A DNA stretch of 46,457 bases from a phage: assembly GCA_026328835.1 (NCBI GenBank), contig GCA_026328835.1_4850.1, one strand, 5' to 3'. Shown here in pieces: positions 2,431 to 40,471 of this stretch. Positions within the stretch are counted from its first letter, which is position 1, and each line of letters starts with the position of its first letter. The translations under genes were made by a program, and so were the position numbers. Under the pieces are notes generated by a model that ran no database searches, was not told the DNA's origin, and was given only the letters and a program-made list of their open reading frames with translations.

Positions 2431-2732
2431 TATTTAATCTCTCCATTCAGTTCATTAACAATTAACGTTGCATAGCCAGCAATATCTTTCCAGCTGTCAT
2501 CATAAGTCGGGTCGCCATTCAGAATACGCCCAATCTTGTGCTGAATCATGTCGAGCGCCTCGCGCTGGCTTGGTGTCAGATTGTTCCACCCATCCACTTC
2601 GCGCATGACGGTTTTCAGTTCCTGCATGATTTCAGCGCCATCTTTGAATTTGCCGTATCGGCTACCGCGCGCGGTGATGAGTTGCTCTGTTGCGTCAGTA
2701 TGGCGCCTATCGCCCGTGATTTGTGAACTCAT
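2430..2732 (-). CDS. hypothetical protein
   Basis: 100-aa ORF; 1-nt overlap with downstream gene. Confidence 0.45.
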   Translation of the reverse strand: MSSQITGDRRHTDATEQLITARGSRYGKFKDGAEIMQELKTVMREVDGWNNLTPSQREALDMIQHKIGRILNGDPTYDDSWKDIAGYATLIVNELNGEIK

Positions 2733-3219
2733 TGTGATGTATTCTCCTGAATTCTTTTATTTTTGCTTCCGCTTCTCTTATGTCAGAAAAGTAACCAACT
2801 GTGAATCTTTTGCCATTTACTCCAACTCTTGCATGCCACTTGTTGTGCGATGAACTCCAGTTAACCCCCTTGATACCGCTAGTGTTGTTTTTGTTCATTG
2901 CTTTGTTGTGGCTATTCTCAAATTTGCTGGCCTCCCTTAAATTGCACGCCCTGTTGTCATTGCGAATTCCATTGATGTGATCAATCATTTCACTTGCTGA
3001 TGAGCCATGAATACATATCCATGCCAGTCTGTGAGCAAGAAAAGCCCTACCGCAAAGAATTATTTGCACATATCCATCTGGCTTTAAGTAGCCTGCAACG
3101 CTCCCTTTTTCTGCAATCCTATTCCTTGTCTTTAGCCATTTAAATTCCCCAGTTAGTGGATTGTAGTCAAGGTAACTCAATATAAACTCCCTACTCGGCT
3201 CCTCCCTCCTATGTCTCAT
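2707..3219 (-). CDS. HNH homing endonuclease with AP2-like DNA-binding domain
   Basis: HRLAW...DHINGIRNDNR..NLR HNH motif plus NTSGIKGVNW...W.A AP2-like segment. Confidence 0.8.
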   Translation of the reverse strand: MRHRREEPSREFILSYLDYNPLTGEFKWLKTRNRIAEKGSVAGYLKPDGYVQIILCGRAFLAHRLAWICIHGSSASEMIDHINGIRNDNRACNLREASKFENSHNKAMNKNNTSGIKGVNWSSSHNKWHARVGVNGKRFTVGYFSDIREAEAKIKEFRRIHHNEFTNHGR

Positions 3220-3422: not shown

Positions 3423-3522
3423 ATTTACTACTCCTTCTCGAAAATTATTGTTGACCAATCCACATCACTTAGTCAATACTTATTGACGTAGATTGTACCA
3501 CAACGGAAAAGGTGATGTGGAA

Positions 3523-7705: not shown

Positions 7706-8776
7706 ATGGAAAAGATTATTTTTACCAAAGACTTGGTAGCCAACTCCGCAGTAGTGGCTGACCAGTGGAAACATCTCACTATCGACCGTAAGGTATTCTG
7801 CAATGCAGAAGCTGAACTAGCGAAAACCTACGGTGTTAACGCCACCGCACTGGTAACGAAAGATTACTGGCGCGACGTGGACAACGTCACCACCCGCGTT
7901 TTCCGCAACGAAGCTGGTCAGGACATGATGGCTGACCTGATGGGCATCGCGGCAAACATCAATATCGGTAAGACTGTGGCAATCAGCCGCATCGCTTCCG
8001 ATGCTGGTAAGGTTGTCCGCACTCTGTCTGGTCAGGAGCCGGAAGACTTGGACAAAACTCGCTACGATTACACTGGCGATGTGATTCCAATTTTCAAGAC
8101 TGGCTACAGCCGCGAATGGCGTGAACTGCTGGGTATGCAGTCTGAGGGCTTTGACCCACTGCTTGACGATCAGGCTAACGTCACCTTTAACCTGCGTTCC
8201 GACATGGCGCAGTATCTGCTGACTGGCGACCAGACTCTGAACGTGAACGGCGTTTACACTGGCTACGGTATCACCAACCACCCGAACACTGTTCAGGTTA
8301 ACCTGAATGCTTCCGGTGGTCTGAATATCGACCTGCAAACCGCAACGCCAGACGAAATCGTGAAATTCTTCAATCAGGATTTCCAGGCTATTCTGGATGC
8401 GCAGAACGTATTTGAGCAGGTGACTCTATGGGTTTCTCCGGCAGTGCGTCGTAGCTTCATGCGTCCGTATTCTGATGCGGCTGGCTTCAAAGGCGGCACT
8501 GTTGAGCAGTACATCACGCAGTTCGGCAATGGTCGCATCGGCAAGATTGGCACCAACTTCCTGCTGACTGGAAACCATTTCGTTGGCTACGTTCGCAACG
8601 ACATGTACATCCGACCGCGTGTTGCTCAGCCTGTTTCCACCTATGCGGCAGCCCGTGACAATCCGCACGATAACTTCAACTTCCTCGTGTGGTCAGCTTT
8701 TGGTCTTCAGGTGAGACGCGATTTTGCAGGGAAGTCAAAAGTGTTTAACGGCTACGGCACGCAAACTCCGCTGTAA
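7706..8776 (+). CDS. major capsid protein
   Basis: 356-aa ORF after scaffold; followed by terminator; strong codon usage. Confidence 0.7.
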   Translation: MEKIIFTKDLVANSAVVADQWKHLTIDRKVFCNAEAELAKTYGVNATALVTKDYWRDVDNVTTRVFRNEAGQDMMADLMGIAANINIGKTVAISRIASDAGKVVRTLSGQEPEDLDKTRYDYTGDVIPIFKTGYSREWRELLGMQSEGFDPLLDDQANVTFNLRSDMAQYLLTGDQTLNVNGVYTGYGITNHPNTVQVNLNASGGLNIDLQTATPDEIVKFFNQDFQAILDAQNVFEQVTLWVSPAVRRSFMRPYSDAAGFKGGTVEQYITQFGNGRIGKIGTNFLLTGNHFVGYVRNDMYIRPRVAQPVSTYAAARDNPHDNFNFLVWSAFGLQVRRDFAGKSKVFNGYGTQTPL

Positions 8777-9055: not shown

Positions 9056-9904
9056 ATGGCAGTAAGATACGACATATTCACCACACGCGAAGATGGCGAG
9101 GTGATGCTTGATGAGTTGATGTCCGCTGACTGGACTGCGCTACAGGTTAACGTGATGCCACTTGATTCATCTGGCGCATACACACCACTTGTCAGTGGAA
9201 CTGTGTCCGTGAAGGTGTCGCCATTTGAATCTGGCAACTACTGGATTGACGTCAACAATAATAATTATTACGGCGTAGCGCTGCGCCTGAAGATAATCAA
9301 AACGGAATTACCAGCAGCAGTAAGTTCGCTGCGCGTTTCGGTGTGGCGCGCTGGCGTTTCTCCACAATCGGTAGTAAACCTTCAGCCTGACGTGGCGATA
9401 AGCGATATCACCACGCAGTCATATATTGAACGCGCCAATAAGCAAGGCAAGCTGTTCACCGCGTCGCGTAGAGTAACTGATGTTTCTGGCGGCTCAAACA
9501 TTGACAGCATTTTTATCACCGGAACAAAGCAGGTGATATTCAACCAGCGCATTATTGGTTACACAGGGAAAGGTGTTATTGCGTCAATCTATCGCGGCGC
9601 AGTTGCCACAGGAGGCACAGCAGCAGAGATTAATAATCCAAACGATATAACACCACAGGCAGCTACGGCGCAGCTGCTGACTGGCGCTACTGTGACAAAC
9701 ATCGGACAGTTGACAGTTGCAGCAACGTATAGCGAAGGGAATGCATCGAATCAGGGGCAGGGTAACTCGCAGGCTAGATTAGGTGAGCAGATTATCATGG
9801 CACCAAACACGACGTACTTACTTCGCATAACATCACTGGATACTGCGGTGCAGAATATCAATGCTTACGTTTCGTGGTTTGAGGATGATACTTATCTGGC
9901 GTGA
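9056..9904 (+). CDS. putative virion structural protein
   Basis: internal ATG 9056 (MAVRYDIF...) after terminator preferred over track start 8852. Confidence 0.45.
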   Translation: MAVRYDIFTTREDGEVMLDELMSADWTALQVNVMPLDSSGAYTPLVSGTVSVKVSPFESGNYWIDVNNNNYYGVALRLKIIKTELPAAVSSLRVSVWRAGVSPQSVVNLQPDVAISDITTQSYIERANKQGKLFTASRRVTDVSGGSNIDSIFITGTKQVIFNQRIIGYTGKGVIASIYRGAVATGGTAAEINNPNDITPQAATAQLLTGATVTNIGQLTVAATYSEGNASNQGQGNSQARLGEQIIMAPNTTYLLRITSLDTAVQNINAYVSWFEDDTYLA

Positions 9905-9908
9905 TAAA

Positions 9909-9937
9909 ATAAAAGCCCCGTGAAGGGGCTTTTTATT
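9909..9937. terminator. bidirectional rho-independent terminator
   Basis: aaagcccc-gtgaa-ggggcttt between convergent genes. Confidence 0.7.
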
Positions 9938-9938
9938 G

Positions 9939-10478
9939 CTACAGACGCATCGGCATAACAACAATCTTCGCAGTCTCGCCAGATGGCGAATTAATACAGC
10001 AAACTGCGGCATTTGTGTTTCCATTTAGTTCAAACTTAACGCCACAGAATTTAGGATTAAACAGTTTTGCCACTTTCTCAATATTAACCAGATAGCCAGC
10101 ATTGAAGCCAATTTCCTCTGCTGCTTTCGTTTCCTTAGGTATCACGCGGTCAATGTCAGGGAATCGGCCGTCAATCTCTTCGCAGATACCAGCACCAACC
10201 ATTGTGTCCATATGACCGAAATGATAAGTAACGATTCCAGATTTTGTATCGATGATCGCATGGTTATATTTCTTTGTCGGAGACTTGCTTACCTTTACAA
10301 TCACATTTTCTGTCAGCTTATTGTCATGGCTTCCGCCAATAAACGCGCGATGACCGTCAGTTGATGCGATGCGACCATCTTGCATAAAGCAAATACCATT
10401 CAGGTAATACCGCACATCGTTGCGAGCCTGAAAGATTAATGCTGATTCAAGTAATAATTTGCTGATTTTTAGTTTCAT
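9939..10478 (-). CDS. truncated beta sliding clamp (DnaN)-like protein
   Basis: DVRYYLNG, TDGHR, DGRFPDIDRVIP and C-terminal VVMPMRL match E. coli DnaN domain II and the end of domain III as recalled; about 179 aa versus 366; start MKLKISK with RBS AAGGTGA. Confidence 0.7.
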   Translation of the reverse strand: MKLKISKLLLESALIFQARNDVRYYLNGICFMQDGRIASTDGHRAFIGGSHDNKLTENVIVKVSKSPTKKYNHAIIDTKSGIVTYHFGHMDTMVGAGICEEIDGRFPDIDRVIPKETKAAEEIGFNAGYLVNIEKVAKLFNPKFCGVKFELNGNTNAAVCCINSPSGETAKIVVMPMRL

Positions 10479-10675
10479 TACTTCACCTTTATCATGTGCT
10501 GTTTTGCAACCTTCAGGCATTCTTCAAAGATGCCACCCTTCTTTGCGCTCTGATTGCGCTTGTAATACTGAATCGCCGCATCAATTGCCATCTGGTCGAT
10601 ATCTGGCAGCTTGGCGCGAAGTTGTTTTTCGATGAATTGCTCAGCGTTCATTGTTCTCGCCTGCCATAAATCCAA
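10478..10675 (-). CDS. hypothetical protein
   Basis: 65-aa ORF; alternative internal start at 10651. Confidence 0.4.
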   Translation of the reverse strand: MDLWQARTMNAEQFIEKQLRAKLPDIDQMAIDAAIQYYKRNQSAKKGGIFEECLKVAKQHMIKVK

Positions 10676-10868
10676 TAAATTGCTTTGTGCACTTCAGGCA
10701 AAGCCACTTGCATTTCTGAATGTTAATCCCTCCGCAGTCCTGGCCAATACTCCCTCTGTATGCGACGGTAAGTTCTCCGCGCTCACCATCAATATACTCA
10801 TCAGGATTTTTAGTTTCATATCCGCATCTATCACACTTATGGATTGTTATGGTTATTTTCGCCATCAC
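10641..10868 (-). CDS. zinc-ribbon protein
   Basis: CDRCG...CLKC Cys pairs in 75 aa. Confidence 0.5.
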   Translation of the reverse strand: MMAKITITIHKCDRCGYETKNPDEYIDGERGELTVAYRGSIGQDCGGINIQKCKWLCLKCTKQFIGFMAGENNER

Positions 10869-11674
10869 ATCTTCTCCAGAATTGCCATGACCTCGTGAAT
10901 ATCAGCAACAGGAATCTGGATAAACTCCTCATCCTCAGCCACCACATGACCAGCAGGAAGAATTACATGATCTGCTGGCTTTAATAACTCAATCAGGCGG
11001 TCTACTGGCTTAATCTTTTTCGACTTCAGCACCTTTGCCGTGACCTTGTCCTTGCCTTGTGCTTTGGCCTCTTCGACTGCCTCGTCGATAACTTTAACCG
11101 CATCATCGCCATGTTCACGCGTTACTGCTACGGCATTTGCATAGCTGATTTGTCCTGCACTGATGCGCGCTTTTACTTCTGCTGGCACATCACCCAGCGA
11201 CAGGTGCATTTGCACGTCAGATACTGAGCGGCCTACCTTCTTGGCGATTTCTTCATTTGTCCAGCCAAATCCTTTCAATCGCGTGTAAGCCTTTGCACGC
11301 TCAAACGGGTCAAGCTGCTTGCCCTGACTGGATGACACCATGAAGGCGATTTTGTCCGCCTCGTCGCCAGTGAAATCCTTGCACTCAATGCGAACGATTG
11401 GTGCGCCGCGTTCAATGGCTCGTAGTGCACCAAGATAGCGATGCTGACCATCAAGAATGCGGATTCCTTTGTCGTCAGGGATAACTGTTAATGCTGGCAA
11501 TGGCTGACCTGATTCCCAGCACTGAGCGAAATATTCAACGTGTTGCTCATCTGCTTCACGGATGTTATATCCCGGCTCCAGATAGATTCGCTCCACTGGC
11601 ACGAGATAGGTTTTGTTAACAGCAATACCGTTGCGCGTTTCTTTGTCTGAATAGATTTTGCTTAGTGTTTTCAT
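10865..11674 (-). CDS. ParB-like (ParB/Srx N-terminal domain plus HTH) protein
   Basis: DGQHRYLGA GxxR-type motif followed by HTH-like EEIAKKVGRSVSDVQMHLSL. Confidence 0.65.
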   Translation of the reverse strand: MKTLSKIYSDKETRNGIAVNKTYLVPVERIYLEPGYNIREADEQHVEYFAQCWESGQPLPALTVIPDDKGIRILDGQHRYLGALRAIERGAPIVRIECKDFTGDEADKIAFMVSSSQGKQLDPFERAKAYTRLKGFGWTNEEIAKKVGRSVSDVQMHLSLGDVPAEVKARISAGQISYANAVAVTREHGDDAVKVIDEAVEEAKAQGKDKVTAKVLKSKKIKPVDRLIELLKPADHVILPAGHVVAEDEEFIQIPVADIHEVMAILEKM

Positions 11675-12015
11675 TGTTTCTTTCCTAATGCTTTCTTGAT
11701 AGATTCTTCAGCTAACAGCAATTCTTCTGGGTATTGCTCATTCCAGTTTTGTTTGTATGCCTTGCCAAGCATTTTTTGCAGAGCTTCAAGCAACTCAGGT
11801 GCTGCGGCTATTAACTTTGCATTTGCACGCGTTTCATCAGCCTCTCTGGCATGAACATTTTCATAAACAGGTGTTAATACATTTGCCACCTTATATCGAT
11901 GACCAATAATTGCGCCTCTGATTCTGATGTATGGCTTATCTACTTCTTCTGGTAAAACCTGCCACGGACCTTTTGTACCTTTGAATTCATCTTTCATATC
12001 ACTCACCTCTAACAT
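11671..12015 (-). CDS. Ead/Ea22-like protein
   Basis: KGPW ... ANAKLIAAAPELLEAL pattern. Confidence 0.5.
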   Translation of the reverse strand: MLEVSDMKDEFKGTKGPWQVLPEEVDKPYIRIRGAIIGHRYKVANVLTPVYENVHAREADETRANAKLIAAAPELLEALQKMLGKAYKQNWNEQYPEELLLAEESIKKALGKKQ

Positions 12016-12037
12016 TTATTGTTGTTTCTACGTCATT

Positions 12038-12066
12038 ACTATAAACACCTCACCAATCTACGTCAA
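12038..12066 (-). promoter_or_regulatory. sigma70-like promoter for the minus-strand island
   Basis: minus strand TTGACG (12066-12061), 17-nt spacer, TATAGT (12043-12038). Confidence 0.5.
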
Positions 12067-12074
12067 CAGGAATA

Positions 12075-12083
12075 TGCTAAAAT
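12075..12083 (+). promoter_or_regulatory. extended -10 promoter element (TGcTAAAAT)
   Basis: TG-N-TAAAAT about 30 nt upstream of the ORF at 12114. Confidence 0.35.
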
Positions 12084-12113
12084 CATGCTAATCAAACAAC
12101 AGGAGATTTAAAC

Positions 12114-12233
12114 ATGGGTTCCACCAATTCGCCTTCTCGTTCACGCGCAACTGGCAATACCAAAACTGGCGGCAAAACTGGCGCAGTGAAGCCAAACGGC
12201 TCCACCCGTTCACCGTCGCGCGGTAAGAAATAA
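12114..12233 (+). CDS. small highly basic Ser/Thr/Gly-rich protein
   Basis: hand-translated 39 aa MGSTNSPSRSRATGNTKTGGKTGAVKPNGSTRSPSRGKK; strong RBS AGGAGA; stop overlaps next ATG. Confidence 0.4.
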   Translation: MGSTNSPSRSRATGNTKTGGKTGAVKPNGSTRSPSRGKK

Positions 12234-15356: not shown

Positions 15357-16076
15357 ATGGCTATTTGTGCAAATGATAAAGGCGTTCTGGTCGGTCGCAT
15401 GACCAGACTGTTCCTTGCTGAAGGGTGCGGTGACGCAGTTCCGGATGCGGGAGACTGGAAATATTTAGGCTCAACCACCAGTAAAGGTGTTGACTACTCG
15501 CCGCAGACCACTACGTCGGAAGCGGATACCGCTGGCGGTTTTGTTTCCACTCTCGTTACCAGCTCTGATATGACCATCAGTGCAGAGGTTGAAATCCGCA
15601 AGAATGACCCGAGCGATGAATTTGGCTTCCATCGTCTGGTTGAGATTTACGCCACTGAACTGAAAGCGCGTCGTCAGCCTTCCTTGTGGGTGCGTGAAGT
15701 AACTGGCGCGACTATCGTTACCGCGTATTGCAACATCACCAGCATCAGTTATGAAGGTGGCACAAACGACATCGTGACTGGCAGCCTTGAGTTCAAGGTT
15801 TACGATTCCGACAGCGTTACCGTCGAAAGCCTTGAGCCTCTGGCGTTCACTACCGACCTGCAATCAACTGGCACGGCTGGCAGCCCGTTAACTGTTGCTG
15901 TTGAAGGTGGCGTTGCACCATACACCTATGTGTGGCGAAAAGATGGCGTAGTTGTTGGTGGCGAATCTGGCGCAACACTGGCAAGCCCAACAGCTGGTGT
16001 ATATACCGTCACGGTAACTGATTCTTCTACTGACCCGGAAATTATCATCAGCACGGCTTGCACTGTGTCCGCATAA
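15357..16076 (+). CDS. major tail protein with C-terminal Ig-like domain
   Basis: 239 aa; C-terminal ~80 aa Ig-like (PLTVAVEGGVAPYTYVWRKDG...GVYTVTVTD); followed by terminator. Confidence 0.6.
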   Translation: MAICANDKGVLVGRMTRLFLAEGCGDAVPDAGDWKYLGSTTSKGVDYSPQTTTSEADTAGGFVSTLVTSSDMTISAEVEIRKNDPSDEFGFHRLVEIYATELKARRQPSLWVREVTGATIVTAYCNITSISYEGGTNDIVTGSLEFKVYDSDSVTVESLEPLAFTTDLQSTGTAGSPLTVAVEGGVAPYTYVWRKDGVVVGGESGATLASPTAGVYTVTVTDSSTDPEIIISTACTVSA

Positions 16077-16079
16077 AGA

Positions 16080-16108
16080 AAAAGCCCCGAAAGGGGCTTT
16101 GTTTTATT
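16080..16108. terminator. bidirectional rho-independent terminator
   Basis: aaagcccc-gaaa-ggggcttt between convergent genes. Confidence 0.7.
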
Positions 16109-16304
16109 CTTGTGGTGGTTCTGGCAACGGCATCCAGTGCGTTACATATTTTCCGTAGTGATTCCAGAATGGCTTTCTCTCGTCGTCAGGAACAATGTAG
16201 TAGTCGTGCTGAACGGCATTATTCAAAGTTTCATACACCAAGAACTCTTTATCTGTACTACCGTTACCAGGTAGCAGTTCACTACACTTAATCCACTGAC
16301 TCAT
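16104..16304 (-). CDS. DUF551-like phage protein
   Basis: 66 aa; W...LP ... HWMPLPEPP pattern. Confidence 0.45.
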   Translation of the reverse strand: MSQWIKCSELLPGNGSTDKEFLVYETLNNAVQHDYYIVPDDERKPFWNHYGKYVTHWMPLPEPPQE

Positions 16305-16444
16305 ATCACCTTATCCTCATCAAAAATCACACCAATAACGCGAAGCAAGTCTTTCGCCATTCTCTCTGCTTCTTCGTAATCGTAACCTGCATCAACATAC
16401 AGTTCAGTGTAGAAAATCAGGTCTGCTTTTGTTTGTTCGTTCAT
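16301..16444 (-). CDS. hypothetical small acidic protein
   Basis: hand-translated 47 aa; ATGA overlap with downstream gene. Confidence 0.3.
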   Translation of the reverse strand: MNEQTKADLIFYTELYVDAGYDYEEAERMAKDLLRVIGVIFDEDKVI

Positions 16445-16453
16445 GACTAAGCC

Positions 16454-16747
16454 TTACATCCCTTGCTTTTCACACAAAGTAACAGCCACATTGCGCAATT
16501 GCTCTTTGGTCATGTCCTTGCGTGCATAAACCATTTCTACGATAGCAAGGCCGATCATTTCTGCTGCTTCGTTGTTTTTTGCAGCACCTTTTACCACAAC
16601 TTCAGCAAGATTCTTGCTGATACCGTTATCGCGAGCATCAGCAGTATTTAATGCGATGTCGCCAATATTCTTGCACACCTCGGAAGTTGCTACAGCAGAG
16701 AAAGAAGAAACCAATAGTGCAGACGCAATCAACATTTTAATTTTCAT
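16454..16747 (-). CDS. secreted/periplasmic small protein (YmgD-like, two Cys)
   Basis: N-terminal signal peptide MKIKMLIASALLVSSFSAVA; two Cys about 70 aa apart. Confidence 0.45.
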   Translation of the reverse strand: MKIKMLIASALLVSSFSAVATSEVCKNIGDIALNTADARDNGISKNLAEVVVKGAAKNNEAAEMIGLAIVEMVYARKDMTKEQLRNVAVTLCEKQGM

Positions 16748-16826
16748 AACTCACCTCATTTATTCATCACTCGTTTCGATGACTTGAATCTACATCACCA
16801 CCTCGCAGGTGTCAACATCACCGAGA

Positions 16827-17572: not shown

Positions 17573-20058
17573 TGGCTGAAGAAGTCGGCGGAATTGTCTA
17601 TGAAGTCGGGATGGATGTATCAGGACTGACGACTGGCGGGCAAAAGGTAAACAAGGTTCTTCAGGAGATTGAGAAATCAATTGATGAGTCAATTGCTGGG
17701 ATAAATAAACTTGACACGGGACTAAAAAACACCGCATCGACAGTTGAGAAATCTGGCAGGAGTTTCTCCAGTTTAAATAACGCCATGCGACAGGGTGGCT
17801 ACCAGATTCAGGACTTTGTAGTTCAGGTGCAGAGTGGACAATCAGCACTTGTTGCTTTAAGTCAACAAGGTAGCCAGTTATTAAGCGTCTTTGGTTCTGG
17901 TGGTGCGGTTGCCGGTGCATTGTTAACCATCGGTACGGTAATCGTTGGCTCATTAATTGCCGGCATGGATAACGCAACCGTTTCCACAAAGGCGCTCACC
18001 GCCGCACAGCAGAGACTTGCTGACATATTCCAGCTTTCTGCTAATGGGGTTGTCGTTCTCTCTGACAAGTTTGCAACACTGGCTAAACAGTCAGAAAACG
18101 CCGCCAGAGCACAGTTAACAATGGCTCTGATTGATGCAAACAACATCATCAAGGCTTCAGTGCAGGGCGTCAATGAGCTTGGCGACGCACTTGGCTCGTG
18201 GAAAGCACCACTATCCGCCGCCATAAGTCAACTTGACACGCTGAAAGCAAGAGGTATCGATGTAAACGCAGCGCTAAAGAACCTTGGCGGGACATATGAG
18301 GGTAATATTCTCGGACTAAACCAACTCAATCAGGTGGTAAAAAGTCTGGCTGATGAGTTTGGCATAAGCGCAGATGACGCCCTGAAACTGGTTGAAGCTC
18401 TGGCAGCCGTAAGAAAAAATGCCAATCCTGAAACAATAGCGGAGTTGCGCGACCTGACTGTTGACCTTAGTCAGAAATATGGATATGCAAACAAGTCACT
18501 ATCTGAGCTTACTGGCAAGGTTGGCGAGTATTCAATTTCGGCAGATCAGGCAGCAGAATCTACAAAGCTGGCTACCGATATGCTGAACGGGCACAAAGTA
18601 GCTTCAGAAGAGGATGCGAGAGCCACTGAAGAAAACACGAAAAGGCTTCAGGCTTACATCCAGTCGATTAAGGAAGAAGGTGAAACCATCGCCTTTACAG
18701 CAAGACAAAAGGCACTGTACAGAGCTGAACAGCTTGGGGCAAGTGATGCAGACAAGCAAACAATCAACTCGTCATTCGACAAGATAGAGGCATACAAGGC
18801 TGAGCTTGCTGCAAAAAAAGAGCAGGAAAAGCAAGACAAAAAACGCATAGCTGCGTCAACAAAGCAAGCCAACCTTGAAGAGTCGGTAGCACAAAAGCTG
18901 GAGAAATTACGCCAGCAAACCATGCTTAATGCCACATCTACCAGCGAACTCTCCCGCGAGCAAGCAATCCTCAACGCACAGCAATCGCTTGGCAAAGCTG
19001 CAACTCAGGAGCAGATAAAACTGGCTGGCGAGTACGCTGCGAAGATTTGGGACCAGAAGAATGCACTGAAGGAGCAAGCGGCAGCGGAGAAGGAAAGGCA
19101 GCGTATAGAGAAATCATATCAGGGGTTGCGCGCCATTGCGTCGCCAACCACTGGCATTGACAGTGAATACCAGCAACGTATGGCTGACCTTGACGCCTAC
19201 GCCGCAGCATATCCGCAGAAAATCACGGAGATTGAACAAACTCGCGCAGCAATTGAAGCACAATATCGCCAGCAGAGAATGGACGCCATGTGGGCTGAAT
19301 GGCAGCAACAAAGCCTCGGTGCGCAGCTTTTCGGCACTGCTCTTGATTCAGCGATGAGCGCGGCATCAAACAGCATCACCGGATTGCTGACGGGCACAAT
19401 GAGCGTGCAGGATGCAATGCGCAGCCTAGGCTCTACGGTGCTTAACTCTCTGGTAAATAGTTTCGTCGAAATGGGCGTTCAGTGGGTTAAATCTGCAGTT
19501 ATGGGACAGACTGCGCAGGTTGCGGCTACGGCAACCACAACAGCAGCGCAAACGGCTGGACTGGCAACCACAACAGCAGCATCCACTGCGGCGGCAGCAA
19601 CCACTACGGCAGCATGGACTCCCGCAGCAATCGTCGCATCAATCGGTTCATTCGGTGGTGCAGCAGCAATTGGTGTAGGTGCCGTTCTCGGAGCGCTGGC
19701 GATGGGTATCGCTGGCAAGCGAAAAAATGGTGGGCCTGTTAGTGCCGGAAGTATGTACGAAGTGGGCGAGGGAAACGCCCCAGAAATATTCCAGGCCAGC
19801 ACAGGCAGGCAATACATGATACCTGGCAACTCAGGAAAGGTTATCAGCAATAAGGATATTTCCGGTGGAGTGGGTGGTGTTGTTGTTTATAATAATGTTT
19901 ACAATAATTCAAGCAATGCTAGCGCAACAAGCAGAGCCACTGATAACGGTGATGGTTCGATAACTATTGAGACATTTATATCCGATATGAATGAAGGCGG
20001 ACCGATGAGCCAATCTATCTCAAGAAACTTTAATACCAACAGGAGGGCAACAGAGTAA
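17572..20058 (+). CDS. tail tape measure protein
   Basis: 828 aa; long helical region; Ala/Thr-rich hydrophobic segment; RBS GAGGAA. Confidence 0.85.
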   Translation: MAEEVGGIVYEVGMDVSGLTTGGQKVNKVLQEIEKSIDESIAGINKLDTGLKNTASTVEKSGRSFSSLNNAMRQGGYQIQDFVVQVQSGQSALVALSQQGSQLLSVFGSGGAVAGALLTIGTVIVGSLIAGMDNATVSTKALTAAQQRLADIFQLSANGVVVLSDKFATLAKQSENAARAQLTMALIDANNIIKASVQGVNELGDALGSWKAPLSAAISQLDTLKARGIDVNAALKNLGGTYEGNILGLNQLNQVVKSLADEFGISADDALKLVEALAAVRKNANPETIAELRDLTVDLSQKYGYANKSLSELTGKVGEYSISADQAAESTKLATDMLNGHKVASEEDARATEENTKRLQAYIQSIKEEGETIAFTARQKALYRAEQLGASDADKQTINSSFDKIEAYKAELAAKKEQEKQDKKRIAASTKQANLEESVAQKLEKLRQQTMLNATSTSELSREQAILNAQQSLGKAATQEQIKLAGEYAAKIWDQKNALKEQAAAEKERQRIEKSYQGLRAIASPTTGIDSEYQQRMADLDAYAAAYPQKITEIEQTRAAIEAQYRQQRMDAMWAEWQQQSLGAQLFGTALDSAMSAASNSITGLLTGTMSVQDAMRSLGSTVLNSLVNSFVEMGVQWVKSAVMGQTAQVAATATTTAAQTAGLATTTAASTAAAATTTAAWTPAAIVASIGSFGGAAAIGVGAVLGALAMGIAGKRKNGGPVSAGSMYEVGEGNAPEIFQASTGRQYMIPGNSGKVISNKDISGGVGGVVVYNNVYNNSSNASATSRATDNGDGSITIETFISDMNEGGPMSQSISRNFNTNRRATE

Positions 20059-20061
20059 AAA

Positions 20062-20085
20062 ATAAGCCCCTCACGGGGCTTTGTT
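20062..20085. terminator. rho-independent terminator
   Basis: aagcccc-tcac-ggggctt stem-loop. Confidence 0.6.
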
Positions 20086-20949
20086 CATTATCTCGTCCAT
20101 TAATTCAGGTGAATATTTAAGCCACTCCGTTGCGCCATCAAACCCTGTCAGTCCTGCACTTTCGTATTTCTTATGATAGTACCTTTCAATAGCAAGAGCA
20201 TCACAACCTATTGTCTTTATTTTTGATATGACGTGAAAATCAAATGGTGTGTTTTTCTTTAACTGACAAACTCTACGCCTAAGATTGTTAGTGATCCCAA
20301 CTTTAATTTCGTTTCCTGAGAACAAGAAGTAAACAAAGGCCTTTTCTTTCAGCTTGAAACCTCCCTTGGAGCAATGAGGGCAACCTTGCCCTTGGAGATG
20401 CTTATCTGGCGTCTTTGTAAACCACCCATGCTCTGGGCATTTTATTCTCATTTTTGTTGTCACATTAATGTATGACAAGCAATCATAATGGTACTTATTC
20501 CCATGAATTATAATGGCATCTTTCTTGAACTTATTGAACCCCTTAGTTACAGATGCTGTAATTTTCTCCCTTGCGCAAACAGGGCAACCACACCCATTAA
20601 GGTGGCTGTTGGCCTCCTGAGAAAACTCAAAGTTATGTACTTTGCATATTATTTTTACTTTCTTGTGACCACCTTTGTATTCAACTTTAGAATAATCATA
20701 AGAGTCACCATGCTTTGCAATCGCATCAGCCACAAATTCACGCGTTGTTTTCTTCTTATTTCCAGAGCAAGAAGGGCATCCAGCTCCATTCAAATGAGAG
20801 TTTGGAGTCTGCTCAAATAGCCCATGCTTACGGCATGTTATCTTTACCTTTATCGAACTTTTTATATAAGAAACAGCATCATAAAGATATTTATCACCAT
20901 GAATATCTCTGGCTTTTATAATAAATTCTTCAGCGGTTGACTTGCTCAT
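20071..20949 (-). CDS. putative nuclease: three tandem Cys/His zinc-ribbon repeats plus T5orf172 (GIY-YIG-like) C-terminal domain
   Basis: three ~65-aa repeats HG.KY.Y...C..HG.F...P..HL.G.GCP.C; C-terminal VYFLF..NEIKVGIT.NL.RR...EWL. Confidence 0.55.
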   Translation of the reverse strand: MSKSTAEEFIIKARDIHGDKYLYDAVSYIKSSIKVKITCRKHGLFEQTPNSHLNGAGCPSCSGNKKKTTREFVADAIAKHGDSYDYSKVEYKGGHKKVKIICKVHNFEFSQEANSHLNGCGCPVCAREKITASVTKGFNKFKKDAIIIHGNKYHYDCLSYINVTTKMRIKCPEHGWFTKTPDKHLQGQGCPHCSKGGFKLKEKAFVYFLFSGNEIKVGITNNLRRRVCQLKKNTPFDFHVISKIKTIGCDALAIERYYHKKYESAGLTGFDGATEWLKYSPELMDEIMNKAP

Positions 20950-30244: not shown

Positions 30245-30279
30245 TCATCATCACGTAAATGAATCTACATCAATCTACG

Positions 30280-30711
30280 TCATTCATCAAGTCCAAAATA
30301 GAATAAAGTTGCTTTTTTTAGTTCATCAAGACCGTAAGCGATGGCGGCATAATGACCAATCCTGCACATCTCAGTTAACACAGCGGATTGCTCTTTGCTA
30401 ACCCTGCTTTTGCTTTTATCGCGACGCTTTGCTTCAATCATCCCGCAACCGTGATTCGCACCCGGCGTCATTATCACATTGTCGCCTATTCCAGTCTTAA
30501 CCCCCATCTTCTGGCGCTTCAGCACAAACTGCACCCTGCTTGATGTGCCAGTTTCGTTGGGTACATGAAACCACAGAACATCAGGGAAGCGGTGTTGCAT
30601 CCATGTGCCGTAACCCATCTGGTCAGTCTCCTCCTTCGGACACTCCCCACGATAACCGCTATCAAATACCCATATACCGCTATCAAGCTGCTTCACTTTG
30701 CTCACCTGCAA
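30280..30711 (-). CDS. VRR-NUC domain nuclease
   Basis: GIGDNVIM...GCGMIEAK...S.EQ pattern; next to helicase. Confidence 0.6.
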   Translation of the reverse strand: MQVSKVKQLDSGIWVFDSGYRGECPKEETDQMGYGTWMQHRFPDVLWFHVPNETGTSSRVQFVLKRQKMGVKTGIGDNVIMTPGANHGCGMIEAKRRDKSKSRVSKEQSAVLTEMCRIGHYAAIAYGLDELKKATLFYFGLDE

Positions 30712-32617
30712 AATCTTTTCTGTGTATTATGTCACGGCCTTTATCGTTAATACGATGTGTGATGCGTTTTGGCGCTTTAATCAACCCCGCATACATCATG
30801 AACTGCTTGGCGTTCTGGCATTTCAGGATTTTCCCAGCTATTGATTTATCATCAAGGTGAGGGAAGATGGCCTTTGCCTTGAACATGTTTTTCATGTGGG
30901 TTGCTCCGCCGTAAGGGTAGAAAACCTCGTTAGCCCAGCCTTCTTTGCCATCACAACGATTAATCCAGTAGCGATATAAAATTCCCTCTCCATCCTTCGT
31001 CAACTGGACTTTGAAGTCAATAACATCAGCCCATTCGTTGTCGGTATACGCACGCTCATTCAGTGCCGCATTTGGGTCTCGCAAAACATGATCGCAATGT
31101 CGGCAATAGCGCGCCGTAGGGTCGTTTTTAGTTCCGCAACCATCATCAAAAATACGGATGCCATGCTTATCGAAGCCGCAACGGATGTAGCTGAAAAATT
31201 CTTCGCAGCGACCATCTGGAGATAGTGCATCTTTGCCAATACAGCGGCGAGCATATGGGCTGTTCATTGTTCCACATTTTGGACACGGAACCTGTTCGCC
31301 ACTGCGTTTTGAACGTTGCGCTTCAGCCTCTTCCAGAATAGGGTCTTCATACAGCTGACCAAGCTCAAACATCGTGCCTGAGAAATCCAGAACCAGATGG
31401 TCTTCTTTATGATACCCGGCATCAATTTGCTCTTTCTTCAGCAGGCGCATTCCGCGACCAAGCAACTGAACGAGAAGGGTGAGTGACATTATTTTTCGTA
31501 ATATGACGCTTACATCCCATAATGGGATATTAACGCCAGTTGTAAGCGCGGCGATCTGGAATGTGTATTTTATTTTGCCAGTGTACGCATCCCTCAGGGC
31601 TTTGCGTCTTGCTTTTTGCCCCATATCTTCAGTAACAATCGCGTAGCTGCCTTCAGGAAGGTATTTAGCAGCCTCCAAGCAATGCTTCTTGCCTGCGCAG
31701 GTAATTAATACCCCATTTCTGTCTTTTGTAAGCTCCATCACTTTGAGCATGATTTTCTGTGTAAGAGTTCCTTGTTCAAGTATTTCCTCCTGCATCTGCT
31801 TGAGCTGCTCTGCGGTGAAGTCCTGCGTCCCGTCAACATCTGAGCCATGGAAGTTATGCAGGTCGTATTGCAAGTCATCAACATCATGAAGACCAAAGAT
31901 TGTTGGAACAACAAATCCACGATCTACCATGTACTTTGTGTCAATGTTTATTATTTCATTTTTCCAGTACGCGCCTTTCATTGATTCAGTACCACGGAAT
32001 GGACTTCCGGTGAATCCAATTGTTATCATCTCATGACCATATTTTTCCTTGCATCGCCTGTTAAGCTCAGTAAGTATTACGCCATATTGTGTTGTTGGAT
32101 TCTCACTAATAATGTCCTGCCATGGCACTTGGTGCCCTTCATCACAAAGGCAAAATCTAGGGGTAAAGTCACTCAACCCACCTTTCTTAACGTCACCGTT
32201 TGATTCATCTTTTTTATCAAAAAGTGCGTTAACTATTGTTCCTTCAGTGCCGCATATAATAGGGTATGCTGTACTTTTCCTACCAAGAGATGCGCTATAA
32301 AGAGAGTTTTTTACACCACACTCCCACATCATTTCAGCATTCTGCTCAGCTATCTCGCCCTGCCTTGAGATTACAAGACCCTCCCACCCCATATCCTGAA
32401 ATCTACTGCAAAGCATTGAAATCATCACGGTCTTTCCTGATGAAACAGACGCTGTAACATAGCTTGGCTCTGGTTTCTTTCCAAAATTACGAATAACCTC
32501 AGCGCACTTTGCGTAAACAAGCCATTGGTAATCATATGGCTCTATGGAACCTAATTTTATTGATTTCTTTAATTTATCTATATCAATTTCTGAAATCATC
32601 TTGTCTATTTTATGCAT
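30683..32617 (-). CDS. superfamily 2 DNA helicase with C-terminal zinc ribbons
   Basis: Walker A SVSSGKT; DEGH box (LCDEGHQV); QLLGRGMR arginine finger; CPKCG and CRHC pairs. Confidence 0.85.
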   Translation of the reverse strand: MHKIDKMISEIDIDKLKKSIKLGSIEPYDYQWLVYAKCAEVIRNFGKKPEPSYVTASVSSGKTVMISMLCSRFQDMGWEGLVISRQGEIAEQNAEMMWECGVKNSLYSASLGRKSTAYPIICGTEGTIVNALFDKKDESNGDVKKGGLSDFTPRFCLCDEGHQVPWQDIISENPTTQYGVILTELNRRCKEKYGHEMITIGFTGSPFRGTESMKGAYWKNEIINIDTKYMVDRGFVVPTIFGLHDVDDLQYDLHNFHGSDVDGTQDFTAEQLKQMQEEILEQGTLTQKIMLKVMELTKDRNGVLITCAGKKHCLEAAKYLPEGSYAIVTEDMGQKARRKALRDAYTGKIKYTFQIAALTTGVNIPLWDVSVILRKIMSLTLLVQLLGRGMRLLKKEQIDAGYHKEDHLVLDFSGTMFELGQLYEDPILEEAEAQRSKRSGEQVPCPKCGTMNSPYARRCIGKDALSPDGRCEEFFSYIRCGFDKHGIRIFDDGCGTKNDPTARYCRHCDHVLRDPNAALNERAYTDNEWADVIDFKVQLTKDGEGILYRYWINRCDGKEGWANEVFYPYGGATHMKNMFKAKAIFPHLDDKSIAGKILKCQNAKQFMMYAGLIKAPKRITHRINDKGRDIIHRKDFAGEQSEAA

Positions 32618-33222
32618 TATTTTACCCTACCAAATTCACCATGAAGACTTGATGATGCTTTTGCATACGCTTTATGTGCATCCTCAGGGGTATTAAAATA
32701 ACCAATAACTTTCTTTTTACCTCTAACCCAAATCTGAGCAACCCACCGTTTCTCCCTTTTGAACCAACTAACACCTTTGTATCCGCTAGTGTTATTTGAT
32801 GATAAGCCTTTATTCCATTTGTTTTGACTGCAATCAGCCAACCTGAGATTTTCTATCCTGTTATCGTTCTTAATTGTATTGATGTGATCAATGTCCATAG
32901 CTCCAGGGTCTTGCTGTTTGCATATGGCCCATACAATTCTATGTGCTTTATAATAAACACCATCAATCATCACAAGCCTGTAATTCATTTTGTCAACCTT
33001 ATTGTCAGCAGGTTTCCCCGGATACCGTGAATTCCATGTTTTGTGATATGGCGTTAATTCATCTCTCCTTTTCCAATACAGGCGTCCATTGACAACCTCT
33101 AACCTTGATGTCACGTAATCAACATCAATTTTTAGCACCTTTCTTTTTTTCTCTAAAACTTTTGAGTCGGCACCCTGAGCAACAGAACTCAGCCCTTGCT
33201 GTTCCATAGAATTCCCCCCCAC
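32617..33222 (-). CDS. HNH homing endonuclease with AP2-like domain
   Basis: HRIVW...DHINTIKNDNRIENLR plus NTSGYKGVSW...W.A. Confidence 0.8.
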   Translation of the reverse strand: MGGNSMEQQGLSSVAQGADSKVLEKKRKVLKIDVDYVTSRLEVVNGRLYWKRRDELTPYHKTWNSRYPGKPADNKVDKMNYRLVMIDGVYYKAHRIVWAICKQQDPGAMDIDHINTIKNDNRIENLRLADCSQNKWNKGLSSNNTSGYKGVSWFKREKRWVAQIWVRGKKKVIGYFNTPEDAHKAYAKASSSLHGEFGRVK

Positions 33223-37174: not shown

Positions 37175-37215
37175 CGACAGCAAGATAACGTTCTAGCTTA
37201 CACATCTTTACAGTA

Positions 37216-37600
37216 GTTACCGGAGTTACCGGGTTTTTACCGATCAGTTACCGATGCAAGTTACTGATAAATATAGAGTTACCGGAGTTACCGGATTTTT
37301 TGCATATGAGTCTATAAAATATCGAAAATGAGAATTTGTATCAAAATTGAATAAAATGCTTATAAATCATGTATATAATAAGAAATTAAACCCTTTTTAT
37401 ATATGTAAGGAGTTACCCGGTAAATCCGGTAACTATCCTGAGATCCTTGCTGTTCGCGGGTTTCAAGTTACCTGACGTCCGGTAACTCCGGTAACTTTTT
37501 AATGGCAAAACCGGCATAAAAACAACATAAGTAATTGATTTGTAACAGTTACCGGTTTTTATGTTCCGAGTTACCGGATTTTGCGTTACTTGGGTAACTT
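37216..37600. repeat. array of GTTACCGG / CCGGTAAC repeats flanking an AT-rich core
   Basis: at least 11 copies in both orientations, e.g. 37216, 37225, 37278, 37287, 37412, 37427, 37479, 37488, 37548, 37570; AT-rich 37300-37410. Confidence 0.75.
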
Positions 37601-37604
37601 GCTG

Positions 37605-37633
37605 TTGACGTAGAATCATCATTGATGTAGATT
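37605..37633 (+). promoter_or_regulatory. sigma70-like promoter for plus-strand early operon
   Basis: TTGACG, 17-nt spacer, TAGATT; 30 nt upstream of first early ORF. Confidence 0.45.
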
Positions 37634-37663
37634 GAACTCATCGAAACAAACGAGGGTGAAGAG

Positions 37664-39924: not shown

Positions 39925-40368
39925 ATGGCTAATCCAAACCCTGTCATGAAATTTTCCTCTGAGTACCAGCCTGCTGGCAGAGGATTAAGCTACAGAAACA
40001 GGCTTATTGAAGCATTAAAGCGATGTGGGCTTGGCGAAGAGGAGTTTCTTGACGCATTCATCAGGACGTCAATCAGGATGACCGAGGAAAACCCGACTCA
40101 GGGTGTGCAGATGCTGAAGGAGATATTCCTGCGCATCAGTCCCGTGCAGAAAAGTATGGCGCCTCCGGTTAATTTTAAATACCGCAAAGATGCCACGCCG
40201 GTAGAGCAGATAGAGGATGTCATTCAATCTGTTTCCAGCGGTGAACTCCCAATTGACGTGGCGTCTCAGGTTGTGTCTATGATTAAGGTTGGTCTTGACG
40301 TGAAAGAGTTAACCGAACTCGCAGCGCGCCTTGAGCGACTGGAGAAATTACTGGAGCAGCAACAATAA
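39925..40368 (+). CDS. putative terminase small subunit
   Basis: 147 aa directly upstream of terminase large subunit (interrupted by HNH gene). Confidence 0.5.
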   Translation: MANPNPVMKFSSEYQPAGRGLSYRNRLIEALKRCGLGEEEFLDAFIRTSIRMTEENPTQGVQMLKEIFLRISPVQKSMAPPVNFKYRKDATPVEQIEDVIQSVSSGELPIDVASQVVSMIKVGLDVKELTELAARLERLEKLLEQQQ

Positions 40369-40374
40369 CTCATT

Positions 40375-40380
40375 TATAAT
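40375..40380 (+). promoter_or_regulatory. -10 hexamer TATAAT preceding HNH leader
   Basis: TATAAT 7 nt upstream of structured element. Confidence 0.35.
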
Positions 40381-40387
40381 AATCAAT

Positions 40388-40433: not shown

Positions 40434-40471
40434 ATCCAACCAATAGACCGCCTGTAACCGAGGATTCAATC

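Follow-up and report, generated by a model that had tools for sequence, protein, structure and literature searches.

The window analyzed here, that is the whole 46,457-nucleotide stretch of phage DNA, carries a block of five minus-strand open reading frames, all in one direction (11671-12015, 10865-11674, 10641-10868, 10478-10675 and 9939-10520), which together occupy 9939-12015 and sit amid plus-strand genes, with the capsid on one side and head completion on the other. A sequence-only reading had described such a five-gene island within the structural module, equipped with a promoter and a bidirectional terminator of its own, and genes, promoter and terminator were all found in place. Upstream on the plus strand lie the gene of the major capsid protein (7706-8776) and two ORFs that are small or variable; downstream come a lipoprotein gene, a membrane protein gene and head-tail genes. 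Homologues and annotated relatives refined the start codons of the first gene (11997), the small ORF (10651) and the clamp fragment (10478), and adjacent genes overlap by 1-11 nt, a tight packing. Since every island ORF has homologues in other genomes, these are genuine genes and not chance ORFs. The features of the island are:

12066-12038, minus strand: promoter-like site TTGACG-N17-TATAGT (promoter scan, 10 of 12 positions matched)
12066-12054, minus strand: promoter core motif TTGACGTAGATTG, the first 13 nt, conserved in relatives
12024-12036, minus strand: degenerate second motif copy, ATGACGTAGAAAC, immediately 3' of the -10 element (read from the sequence)
11671-11997, minus strand: first gene of the operon, 108 aa, PF27050 / phrog_1273 (phrog_1273 at 3.2e-23)
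10865-11674, minus strand: ParB/Spo0J-family protein, 269 aa, N-terminal ParB domain followed by a ParB/KorB-type HTH (Pfam, PHROG and structures)
10641-10868, minus strand: 75-aa protein with two CxxC pairs, a variable island member (translation)
10478-10651, minus strand: 57-aa protein, phrog_4439 (3.7e-22, residues 9-65 matched)
9939-10478, minus strand: mini-clamp, 179 aa, made up of DnaN domain II and, from domain III, the last beta-alpha-beta-beta-beta repeat (family profile)
9911-9933, both strands: bidirectional intrinsic terminator hairpin AAAAGCCCC-GTGAA-GGGGCTTTT (terminator scan and sequence)

The closest relatives of the phage are the Jersey-like siphoviruses Segzyvirus, Skatevirus and Buchananvirus, which replaces an initial description of the genome as T1-like. 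The terminator hairpin is flanked by A- and T-runs and is common to the capsid genes on the plus strand and the island on the minus strand. It belongs to a family of four copies (1699, 9905, 16074 and 20056), one per convergent strand switch (4/4), and a similar hairpin was detected with a strict pattern directly 3' of the mini-clamp gene in 10 of 30 relatives. Two further minus-strand cassettes lie in the tail module, where relatives carry superinfection-immunity-type genes.

The ORF of the first gene runs mechanically to 12015; its homologues are 108 aa long, and the SD sequence GAGGTGA precedes the ATG at 11997. There are 594 homologues, all with PF27050 among the matches listed, and the family has a conserved N-terminal core (GPW...IRIRG...ANAxLIAAAPELLEAL). 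Both PF27050 and phrog_1273 are families of unknown function, and the family profile found no solved relative. An Ead/Ea22-like identity, proposed earlier for this gene, was rejected: Pfam Ead_Ea22 (PF13935) matches lambda Ea22 at 1.1e-28 but gave no match to the first gene at E<=1, and BLASTP of the first gene against lambda Ea22 returned E = 1.3. The zinc ribbon suggested for the 75-aa protein is made plausible by the two CxxC pairs, although no Pfam, PHROG, NCBIfam or PADLOC family matched it; homologues of this gene occur in five of 33 related loci (L002, L009, L011, L019 and L070). For the 57-aa gene, the mechanical ORF reaches a TTG at 10675, the PHROG match begins at residue 9 and the counterpart in phage Skate measures 174 nt. 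Its stop codon overlaps the mini-clamp start codon (ATGA), and it lies directly upstream of the mini-clamp gene in every Jersey-like locus and is absent from distant mini-clamp loci.

The ParB-like gene, the 57-aa gene and the mini-clamp gene were present, all three, in 31 of 33 related loci, between the capsid and membrane-protein genes, and these core genes were found in every related locus reaching their position; about 200-205 phage records match the island region. Variation is confined to the zinc-ribbon gene and to the first gene; of the 33 loci, 19 have a homologue of the latter leading the island. Island GC is 0.43-0.46 compared with about 0.46 genome-wide, and PADLOC returned no defence-system match in the island. 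In relatives, the slots around the core are occupied by anti-restriction, methyltransferase (C5 or N6), DUF551 and HNH genes. Of the properties of a moron, the island has a promoter and terminator of its own within a late operon, but its core genes show neither patchy presence nor deviant base composition. The proposal of an acquired accessory cassette thus holds for the promoter, the terminator and the slots around the core, which are accessory, but not for the core itself, which is fixed, unremarkable in GC and, in the case of the mini-clamp, found in replication modules elsewhere. That proposal was to be given up if the same five genes occupied this position in most related phages with assigned functions; the position is shared by three of the five, and the assigned functions are database labels only, one of which (RusA-like resolvase) is wrong. 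In Jersey-like siphoviruses the island is an ancestral operon, transcribed separately, and not a recent import; as such it is ordinary, a trait conserved in a phage group that has been sampled well.

The same data bear on the idea that the whole island is an accessory counter-defence cassette, in which the ParB-like protein and the clamp fragment would oppose host immunity, for instance by masking phage DNA or neutralizing a clamp-dependent defence, and would not serve replication. This role would fit an island that has a promoter and terminator to itself and lies within the structural module on the opposite strand, as well as the kinds of genes in the slots around the core of relatives and the superinfection-immunity-type genes in the two tail-module cassettes. 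We consider it unlikely, however, as the core genes are invariant across the clade, unlike typical accessory genes, neither PADLOC nor GC content marks the island as such a cassette, and elsewhere the mini-clamp gene lies between cII and O/DnaB or adjoins a helicase.

Five promoter-like sites were found in the region, compared with 6.8 expected, so that the island site alone is no better than chance. Its core motif TTGACGTAGATTG recurs unchanged in 29 of 30 related phages and with a single mismatch in the remaining one, and its distance from the divergent gene is fixed. The 13-nt motif has nine sites in the window (1.3 expected), with copies at 3483 (+), 30261 and 30271 (-), and 37605 and 37622 (+) preceding other non-structural operons; for most copies no good -10 element stands at the correct spacing. 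The recurring motif (TGAYGTAGATT) is a direct repeat and not a palindrome, and the degenerate copy ATGACGTAGAAAC is a possible operator candidate. An iteron array, with the iteron AGTTACCGG, is located at 37215-37577. Because its promoter shares the 13-nt motif with early and replication-recombination operons, the island would most likely be expressed together with those genes and not with the late structural genes around it. We infer this early timing from the shared sequence motif; a search of the literature for a Jerseyvirus transcriptome time course found nothing relevant.

The ParB-like protein had been credited with a GxxR motif and an HTH, and both were confirmed (GxxR in the form DGQHR; Pfam HTH_ParB at 2.6e-11, above the cut-off). 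It also matches Pfam KorB (7.2e-6) and phrog_1033 (6.7e-91), aligns with Spo0J (1vz0) over residues 41-202 (4.7e-13), and is homologous to ParB, Noc and KorB structures over the N-terminal domain and HTH, while scoring below the NCBIfam cut-offs. With the CTP-dependent DNA clamps ParB, Spo0J, Noc and KorB it shares the N-terminal ParB domain and the ParB-type HTH (about 160 residues alignable), but its CTP motifs are not conserved, neither a ParA nor a palindromic parS family was found, and its genome is that of a lytic-type phage. GERRxRA and ENLQR are the CTP-binding and hydrolysis motifs of ParB; in the alignment DGQHRYLGA replaces GERRxRA and SSSQGKQ replaces ENLQRE, by which the CTPase motifs of the island protein are judged to be decayed. 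A ParA-type partner was found neither in the island nor among the annotated genes in the complete genome of the relative Sa179lw, and a partition system was rejected for want of a ParA. No repeated palindrome (parS-like) family was detected in the window, which contains 76 near-palindromes compared with 44-72 in shuffles; most of the 76 are terminators, and the repeated motifs present are non-palindromic. The HTH helix holds QMHLSL, a match to the strict clamp-binding-motif pattern that is probably due to chance.

ParB-family proteins have been recruited for other tasks: KorB, borne by a mobile element, sets the precedent of a transcriptional regulator from the ParB family (PMC11790492), and phage ParB homologues activate thymine dioxygenases, with mutations of NTP-binding/hydrolysis residues having no functional effect (PMC13229309). 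The thymine-dioxygenase ParBs are likewise phage ParB homologues serving outside chromosome segregation, but they lack a DNA-binding domain and are paired with 5mYOX, whereas the island protein has an HTH and the island no dioxygenase. Our literature search found no study of the ParB-like protein in Jersey-like phages. The ParB-like protein could itself be the main actor of the island, either as a KorB-like global regulator or as a centromere or origin binder, with the mini-clamp as an unrelated neighbour. This would agree with the KorB-domain and ParB-HTH matches, the homology to KorB and Noc structures, the recurrence of the motif at several promoters, its own included, and the iteron array. 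The recurring motifs, however, are direct repeats and not the palindromes usual for ParB/KorB dimers, and neither a repeated palindrome family nor a ParA-type partner was found. The ParB-like gene also adjoins the mini-clamp gene in each of three distinct genomic settings, and this speaks for a functional connection between the two; we find this reading quite improbable.

The DnaN-like character ascribed to the mini-clamp from its sequence was borne out, as the family profile matches beta clamps at 1e-15. The profile aligns two stretches, residues 8-159 with beta 136-293 and residues 121-179 with beta 315-366; the C-terminus, VVMPMRL, is the same ending as that of beta. The C-terminal module scores 72.5 against beta 312-366 and 39.5 against beta 268-306, and overall the mini-clamp covers beta 136-250 plus approximately 312-366. 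The DnaN-type fold is present with detectable sequence homology, but the 179-aa protein has neither the three domains nor the approximately 366 aa of a full DnaN, and its scores lie below the curated limits (TIGR00663, 37.3 bits compared with a cut-off of 137.65; Pfam DnaN domain matches below gathering scores). No RusA domain match was obtained for the mini-clamp and its fold is that of DnaN, and the label RusA-like resolvase (PHROG 3007, RefSeq) was rejected as an annotation error.

In bacteria, the beta cleft docks Pol III alpha and epsilon, clamp-loader delta, Pol II/IV/V, MutS/MutL and Hda via their clamp-binding motifs. When the clamp-binding-motif pocket is taken as the 18 residues defined in PMC11139829, 16 are the same as in E. 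coli beta at the sequence level, the changes being L177 to A45 and V344 to T155; the equivalents of R176 and M364 vary across the mini-clamp family. In a family alignment of 136 members (26-88% identity), nine of the twelve most conserved columns are pocket residues, and the mean top-residue frequency is 0.73 in pocket columns compared with 0.37 in the rest (p = 6e-7). By these residues, the mini-clamp keeps the clamp-binding cleft (subsites I and II). The pocket is also the most conserved part of true DnaN, and its retention could therefore partly reflect fold constraints or recent descent.

Domain I is missing from the mini-clamp, and with it K74, I78, R96, R103, R105 and F106, as is the first repeat of domain III, the dimer-interface repeat. 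The equivalents of E298, E300, E301, E303 and E304 are S, E, T, K and I, of which one in five is acidic, and the head-to-tail dimer interface (I78/F106 against I272/L273; basic domain I against E298-E304) is not present. An AF2 model based on the 136-sequence alignment places a loop where beta has the second inner (DNA-facing) helix of domain II; it replaced a model from 20 close homologues that was discarded (pLDDT 42.8). The protein is basic (pI 8.8). Its helix-end motif KLFNPKF, invariant within the Jersey-like group, resembles beta 271-278 (AILSNEKF), the site of the interface residues I272 and L273, a likeness that may indicate some oligomerisation or docking on host beta.

Such features leave room for a true processivity clamp, in which four three-repeat copies, or a mini-clamp paired with host beta, would encircle DNA and tether the polymerase. 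The DnaN fold with an intact polymerase-docking cleft and the KLFNPKF segment speak for it, short clamps of the same fold (180-250 aa) are common in phages, and three repeats times four gives twelve, as in beta2 or PCNA3, which is arithmetic and not a test. Yet domain I and four of the five acidic interface residues are missing, a loop is predicted to replace one DNA-facing helix, and neither the window nor the annotated relatives showed a clamp-loader gene; we doubt that the protein works in this way. Compared with bacterial beta (E. coli or Enterobacter, 366 aa, ring-forming domains), the mini-clamp has no dimer interface and one inner helix fewer. Full-length phage clamps (DnaN homologues of 345-400 aa; T4 gp45) belong to the same phage-borne clamp fold superfamily but are complete rings, whereas the mini-clamp is half-sized, forms a separate family of about 180 aa and comes from a genome in which neither a polymerase nor a loader was detected; T4 gp45 operates with a phage-encoded polymerase and clamp loader.

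The replication genes in the window encode a helicase, primases, ERF, an exonuclease and SSB, and no DNA polymerase family was detected among them. In relatives likewise no polymerase is annotated, except for one 'primase/polymerase' note, which would point to reliance on the polymerase of the host. The 542-aa replication protein of the window matched nothing in PDB or Pfam. For a related Kagunavirus, one paper names another of that phage's genes 'DNA polymerase I', and the absence of a polymerase in these phages is therefore not airtight.

The mini-clamp family comprises 1942 cluster representatives at E<=1e-3, with a tail that includes full-length clamps, and among the best 150 matches 130 are 165-215 aa long. 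A pseudogene or remnant was rejected on the grounds of these roughly 1900 representatives (E<=1e-3), the best of which are mostly about 180 aa, and of the conserved functional residues. In 48 distant viral loci, the immediate neighbours of the mini-clamp gene include CII (16), replication protein O (12), a DnaB-type helicase (19), lambda P (3) and a DnaC-like loader, the gene being placed between cII and the O/DnaB-type replication genes. In two loci (L033 and L037) the gene order is ParB-like, mini-clamp, SF2 helicase, and in L037 all three are homologous to the window's proteins. Pantoea chromosomes hold mini-clamp copies according to a cluster look-up; when a lambdoid mini-clamp locus was compared with E. 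coli genomes by megablast, the match was confined to a neighbouring segment. No study of truncated phage clamps was found in the literature.

The position of the mini-clamp gene among late genes would be explained if the clamp fragment coupled late transcription to replication, in the way that full clamps do in T4 and with MuC in Mu. The gene does lie between head and neck genes, and phage use of the clamp docking cleft for late transcription has precedent (PMC12867686). Opposed to this, no Mor/MuC-like factor and no convincing clamp-binding motif were found among the phage's proteins, in most other phages the gene is part of an early replication operon, and a ring-less fragment cannot track along DNA, all of which makes such a coupling very improbable. 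The scan of the phage proteome with the strict clamp-binding-motif pattern gave five internal matches, and a looser terminal pattern added one head protein. Among the replication proteins none had a terminal clamp-binding motif by the looser pattern, which covered termini only, and the partner of the mini-clamp therefore has to be guessed.

The reading that we put forward, and to which we give an even chance, is that the mini-clamp is a free docking module capturing host clamp-binding proteins for phage replication. It is a fragment of a gamma-proteobacterial-type beta that has kept exactly the part forming the cleft and shed the parts that close the ring, and most likely it does not encircle DNA. 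From the host replisome it would then capture at least one protein with a clamp-binding motif, to be either brought to phage DNA, with the mini-clamp as an adaptor, or withheld from the host chromosome, with the mini-clamp as a decoy. The ParB-like protein would probably supply DNA binding or regulation, and together with the mini-clamp and the phage SF2 helicase, encoded contiguously in other phages, it would belong to a replication module. Binding of clamp-binding motifs, the partner, the direction of the effect and a physical link to the ParB-like protein are all elements that we infer.

More broadly, and with the balance somewhat against it, the proteins of about 180 aa may represent widespread, unstudied phage 'clamp mimics', soluble copies of the beta cleft that tap or jam the clamp-binding-motif network of the host. 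These would serve phages without a polymerase of their own, with clamp-loader delta, Pol III alpha and Hda as candidate targets; clamp-loader delta binds monomeric beta approximately 50-fold more tightly than the ring (PMC11139829). In a more radical variant of the clamp-mimic idea, the proteins would form a sliding clamp with a non-canonical number of subunits. Twort Gp168 (an inhibitor, PDB 7EVP) and Mu MuC (which has clamp-binding motifs) act on the same network of beta cleft and clamp-binding motifs, but they bind the host clamp, whereas the mini-clamp is a phage copy of the cleft and would consequently compete for or recruit the partners of the clamp and not the clamp itself.

For annotation, our analysis indicates that the label 'DNA polymerase III beta subunit' is misleading and the label 'RusA-like resolvase' wrong for these proteins, and both are widespread. 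The beta cleft, an antibiotic target, is the hub that organises all five polymerases of E. coli as well as mismatch repair and the brake that Hda puts on initiation. If the proposed reading is true, the mini-clamp would offer a natural, minimal and probably monomeric cleft for biochemistry and inhibitor work, and it would help to explain how small siphoviruses without a recognisable polymerase recruit Pol III. The existence of a large phage family that retains only the cleft suggests a takeover strategy complementary to that of the clamp binders Twort Gp168 and Mu MuC.

The window comprises an entire phage genome (~46 kb), and the five-gene opposite-strand island that the sequence-only reading had placed in its structural module was confirmed: all five minus-strand ORFs were found in place, co-directional and flanked on both sides by plus-strand structural genes. 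Three gene starts were refined from homologues and annotated relatives. Neighbouring genes overlap by 1-11 nt, the stop codon of the 57-aa gene overlapping the start of the gene for the mini-clamp, a fragment of the beta sliding clamp (DnaN).

Island genes and flanks:
7706-8776, plus strand: major capsid gene, flank of the island
9939-10478, minus strand: mini-clamp gene, 179 aa
10478-10651, minus strand: 57-aa gene
10641-10868, minus strand: possible zinc-ribbon gene, 75 aa
10865-11674, minus strand: ParB-like gene, 269 aa
11671-11997, minus strand: first gene of the island, 108 aa
from 12233, plus strand: head-completion and tail genes, other flank

Besides the island, the structural module holds two minus-strand insertions, both inside the tail module: a cassette at ~16100-16800, with superinfection-immunity-type genes in relatives, and one at 20071-20949, encoding a DUF4379 plus T5orf172/MUG113 protein. 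Immediately upstream of the lipoprotein gene, a plus-strand ORF (12114-12233) encodes a low-complexity, very basic peptide of 39 aa (MGSTNSPSRSRATGNTKTGGK...); in phage Skate this slot is occupied by a hypothetical gene annotated at 120 nt, a match in position.

The island's own promoter-like site, TTGACG-N17-TATAGT, was found on the minus strand at 12066-12038. The promoter scan alone was at chance level (5 sites found, 6.8 expected), and the site is credible because its 13-mer, TTGACGTAGATTG, is conserved: of 30 related phages, 29 carry it unchanged and the remaining phage has one mismatch, and it always lies ~160 nt from the divergent gene. The corresponding motif, TGAYGTAGATT(G), has nine sites in the window against 1.3 expected, often as direct repeats with a spacing of 10-31 bp.

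Copies of TGAYGTAGATT(G):
3483-3495, plus strand: in front of a non-structural operon
12024-12036, minus strand: second, degenerate copy near the island promoter, possible operator
12054-12066, minus strand: at the island promoter, near invariant in 30 relatives
near 15283 and 16793, minus strand: related copies
30261-30283, minus strand: copies 30261 and 30271, in front of a non-structural operon
37605-37634, plus strand: copies 37605 and 37622, in front of a non-structural operon

It is possibly an element specific to this phage, serving as promoter or operator, and its recurrence suggests that the island is co-regulated with early and replication genes. A role of the mini-clamp in coupling late transcription to replication, as for Mu MuC (PMC12867686) and T4, appears highly improbable. 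The predicted terminator hairpin at the island end was likewise present (9911-9933, AAAAGCCCC-GTGAA-GGGGCTTTT), and is one of a family of four bidirectional hairpins (AAAGCCCCnnnnGGGGCTTT) standing at all four convergent strand switches (1699-1728, 9905-9934, 16074-16103 and 20056-20085).

Phage records matching the island region number 205 (80-95% identity), and almost all are Jersey-like siphoviruses of Salmonella, Klebsiella, Escherichia or Shigella. The nearest records belong to this group (Segzyvirus, Skatevirus, Buchananvirus and kin), and the genome is not T1-like. Gene order was invariant across 33 related loci:

Locus start (window orientation), plus strand: capsid gene, 65-aa small ORF, optional 282-aa ORF
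Locus middle, minus strand: mini-clamp, 57-aa gene, variable slot, ParB-like, second variable slot
Locus end, plus strand: optional lipoprotein gene, then membrane-protein gene

The ParB-like, 57-aa and mini-clamp genes were found in each of the 33 loci wherever sequence covers their position, and the GC content of the island is ordinary. Given this invariant synteny, constant core and GC content, the island is ancestral within the clade and consists of a fixed core with accessory slots around it. The earlier notion of an acquired accessory cassette thus holds for the slots around the core and fails for the core itself. The reading had also named the recurrence of the same genes in related phages as evidence against it; the three core genes do recur in position, whereas only 19 of the 33 loci have a first-gene homologue at the head of the island and only five have the zinc-ribbon gene. 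The variable slots of relatives carry genes annotated as an anti-restriction protein, a C-specific or other DNA methyltransferase, DUF551 or an HNH endonuclease. Such company might be taken to mean that the core genes, too, serve counter-defence, which we consider unlikely. The capsid-side flank is another variable slot, since no more than about half of the relatives have the 282-aa gene between capsid gene and island (9056-9904, plus strand; phrog_5335, unknown function), Skate being among those lacking it.

The first gene falls in phrog_1273, and PF27050 is found in its homologues; neither family has a known function. Its product had no match in the Pfam copy searched and no solved relative, and is not Ead/Ea22-like as had been proposed. 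For the 75-aa protein, two CxxC pairs agree with the suggested zinc ribbon, and family searches returned no match to support it. The 57-aa protein matches phrog_4439. The ParB-like protein was correctly recognized, being homologous to ParB/Spo0J over the N-terminal domain and HTH. Its CTPase signatures are decayed (DGQHRYLGA at GERRxRA, SSSQGKQ at ENLQRE), no ParA partner was found, and a search for palindromes gave no parS-type repeat. The homology could also point to the ParB-like protein as the main actor, in a regulatory or centromere role beside an incidental clamp fragment, a reading that we regard as quite unlikely. Residues 155-160 (QMHLSL) fit the hexameric clamp-binding-motif pattern, probably by chance, since they lie inside the HTH region aligned to structured ParB helices.

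The identification of the mini-clamp as DnaN-like stood firmly, its family profile matching beta clamps at 1e-15. In the profile alignment, beta 136-293 is covered by residues 8-159 of the mini-clamp, and beta 315-366 by residues 121-179. The domain II-III linker DGRFPD..RV.P is common to both proteins, and the C-terminus, VVMPMRL, is exactly that of E. coli beta. For the C-terminal module, the better alignment is with the last repeat of domain III (score 72.5; 39.5 for the first repeat), and this last repeat holds all domain III residues contributing to the docking cleft for clamp-binding motifs. Using the published definition of the cleft (PMC11139829), 16 of 18 residues are identical to beta at the sequence level. 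Among 136 family members (26-88% identity), cleft residues make up nine of the 12 most conserved columns (R152, L155, T172, G174, H175, P242, Y323, M362 and P363), and mean conservation is 0.73 in cleft columns against 0.37 elsewhere (p = 6e-7).

Ring closure presents the opposite picture. Domain I is absent, and with it I78, F106 and basic interface residues; the first repeat of domain III, home of I272 and L273, is deleted; and only one of the acidic residues E298-E304 has an acidic equivalent. All ring-closing parts are thus deleted or altered. Domain II moreover has a conserved loop, SKSPTKxY, in place of its second DNA-facing helix in the predicted model, and the protein falls outside the sliding clamps (DnaN) on length, curated score and dimer interface. 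A short KLFNPKF stretch resembles the first repeat of domain III, at the helix end bearing I272/L273, and may therefore keep some residual interface. Such a remnant could serve a ring of non-canonical build or a hetero-oligomer formed together with host beta, an alternative that we judge unlikely.

The family extends well beyond the Jersey-like group. A sensitive search gave 1942 cluster representatives at E<=1e-3, with some full-length clamps in the tail, and 130 of the best 150 measure 165-215 aa. By tblastn the family occurs in 291 phage records, including phages of Vibrio, Acinetobacter, Burkholderia, Proteus, Pseudomonas and Pantoea, and many viral proteins of 180-210 aa in BFVD share the fold (TM 0.8-0.9). 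Database labels are hypothetical protein, 'DNA polymerase III beta subunit' or 'RusA-like resolvase', and one genome paper names an orthologue simply sliding clamp. The label 'RusA-like Holliday junction resolvase' (PHROG 3007, many RefSeq phage records) was rejected as a propagated annotation error, because the protein lacks a RusA domain and has the DnaN fold.

Immediate neighbours were tallied in 48 viral loci from beyond the Jersey-like group: CII (16), replication protein O (12), a DnaB-type helicase (19), lambda P (3) and a DnaC-like loader; the mini-clamp gene therefore heads the replication genes in lambdoid phages, which replicate with host Pol III. Outside the Jersey-like group, the ParB-like protein accompanies the mini-clamp in just two viral contigs, L033 and L037, unrelated to each other, where they form contiguous, co-directional trios with an SF2 helicase of 656-661 aa bearing zinc ribbons:

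L033, 876-4199: ParB-like, mini-clamp, SF2 helicase
L037, 3167-6556: ParB-like, mini-clamp, SF2 helicase

All three L037 proteins are homologous to those of the window, as are the ParB-like protein and mini-clamp of L033. The window's SF2 helicase (30683-32617) lies ~20 kb from the island. The other replication genes of the window encode primases, ERF, a PD-(D/E)XK exonuclease and SSB, and the searches detected no family of polymerases or clamp loaders.

At 37215-37577, where the replication genes and the plus-strand early genes diverge, the intergenic region carries thirteen copies of the 9-mer AGTTACCGG with 0-1 mismatch, in both orientations and on either side of an AT-rich stretch (18 matches in the window, 4.1 expected); the whole looks like an iteron-type origin or centromere-like array. 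Elsewhere, repeats of 50-63 nt are common to the DNA of four ORFs, identical or complementary at 72-95% of positions (one pair at 95%); these ORFs look like scattered paralogous HNH homing-endonuclease genes; the one tested encodes an HNH_3 plus AP2 protein:

2707-3219, minus strand
32617-33222, minus strand
40331-40990, plus strand
45499-46137, plus strand

The best-supported reading, to which we give about even chances, is that the mini-clamp is a free docking cleft that captures host clamp-binding-motif proteins, with the ParB-like protein in the same module. It would not encircle DNA; its copy of the beta cleft would capture host proteins bearing such motifs, which would be delivered to phage replication complexes or withheld from the host, and the ParB-like protein would provide DNA binding or regulation. 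Clamp-loader delta binds monomeric beta ~50-fold tighter than the ring (PMC11139829), which makes it one attractive, if speculative, partner. Phage proteins that bind the host clamp, such as Gp168 (PDB 7EVP) and MuC, represent the converse arrangement, the mini-clamp being a phage copy of part of the clamp; no study of truncated phage clamps of this type was found in the literature searched. As a feature of genomes, the island can already be found, with annotation, in hundreds of records. What is new is the recognition of a large family of ring-less, cleft-retaining clamps, together with their replication-module context.
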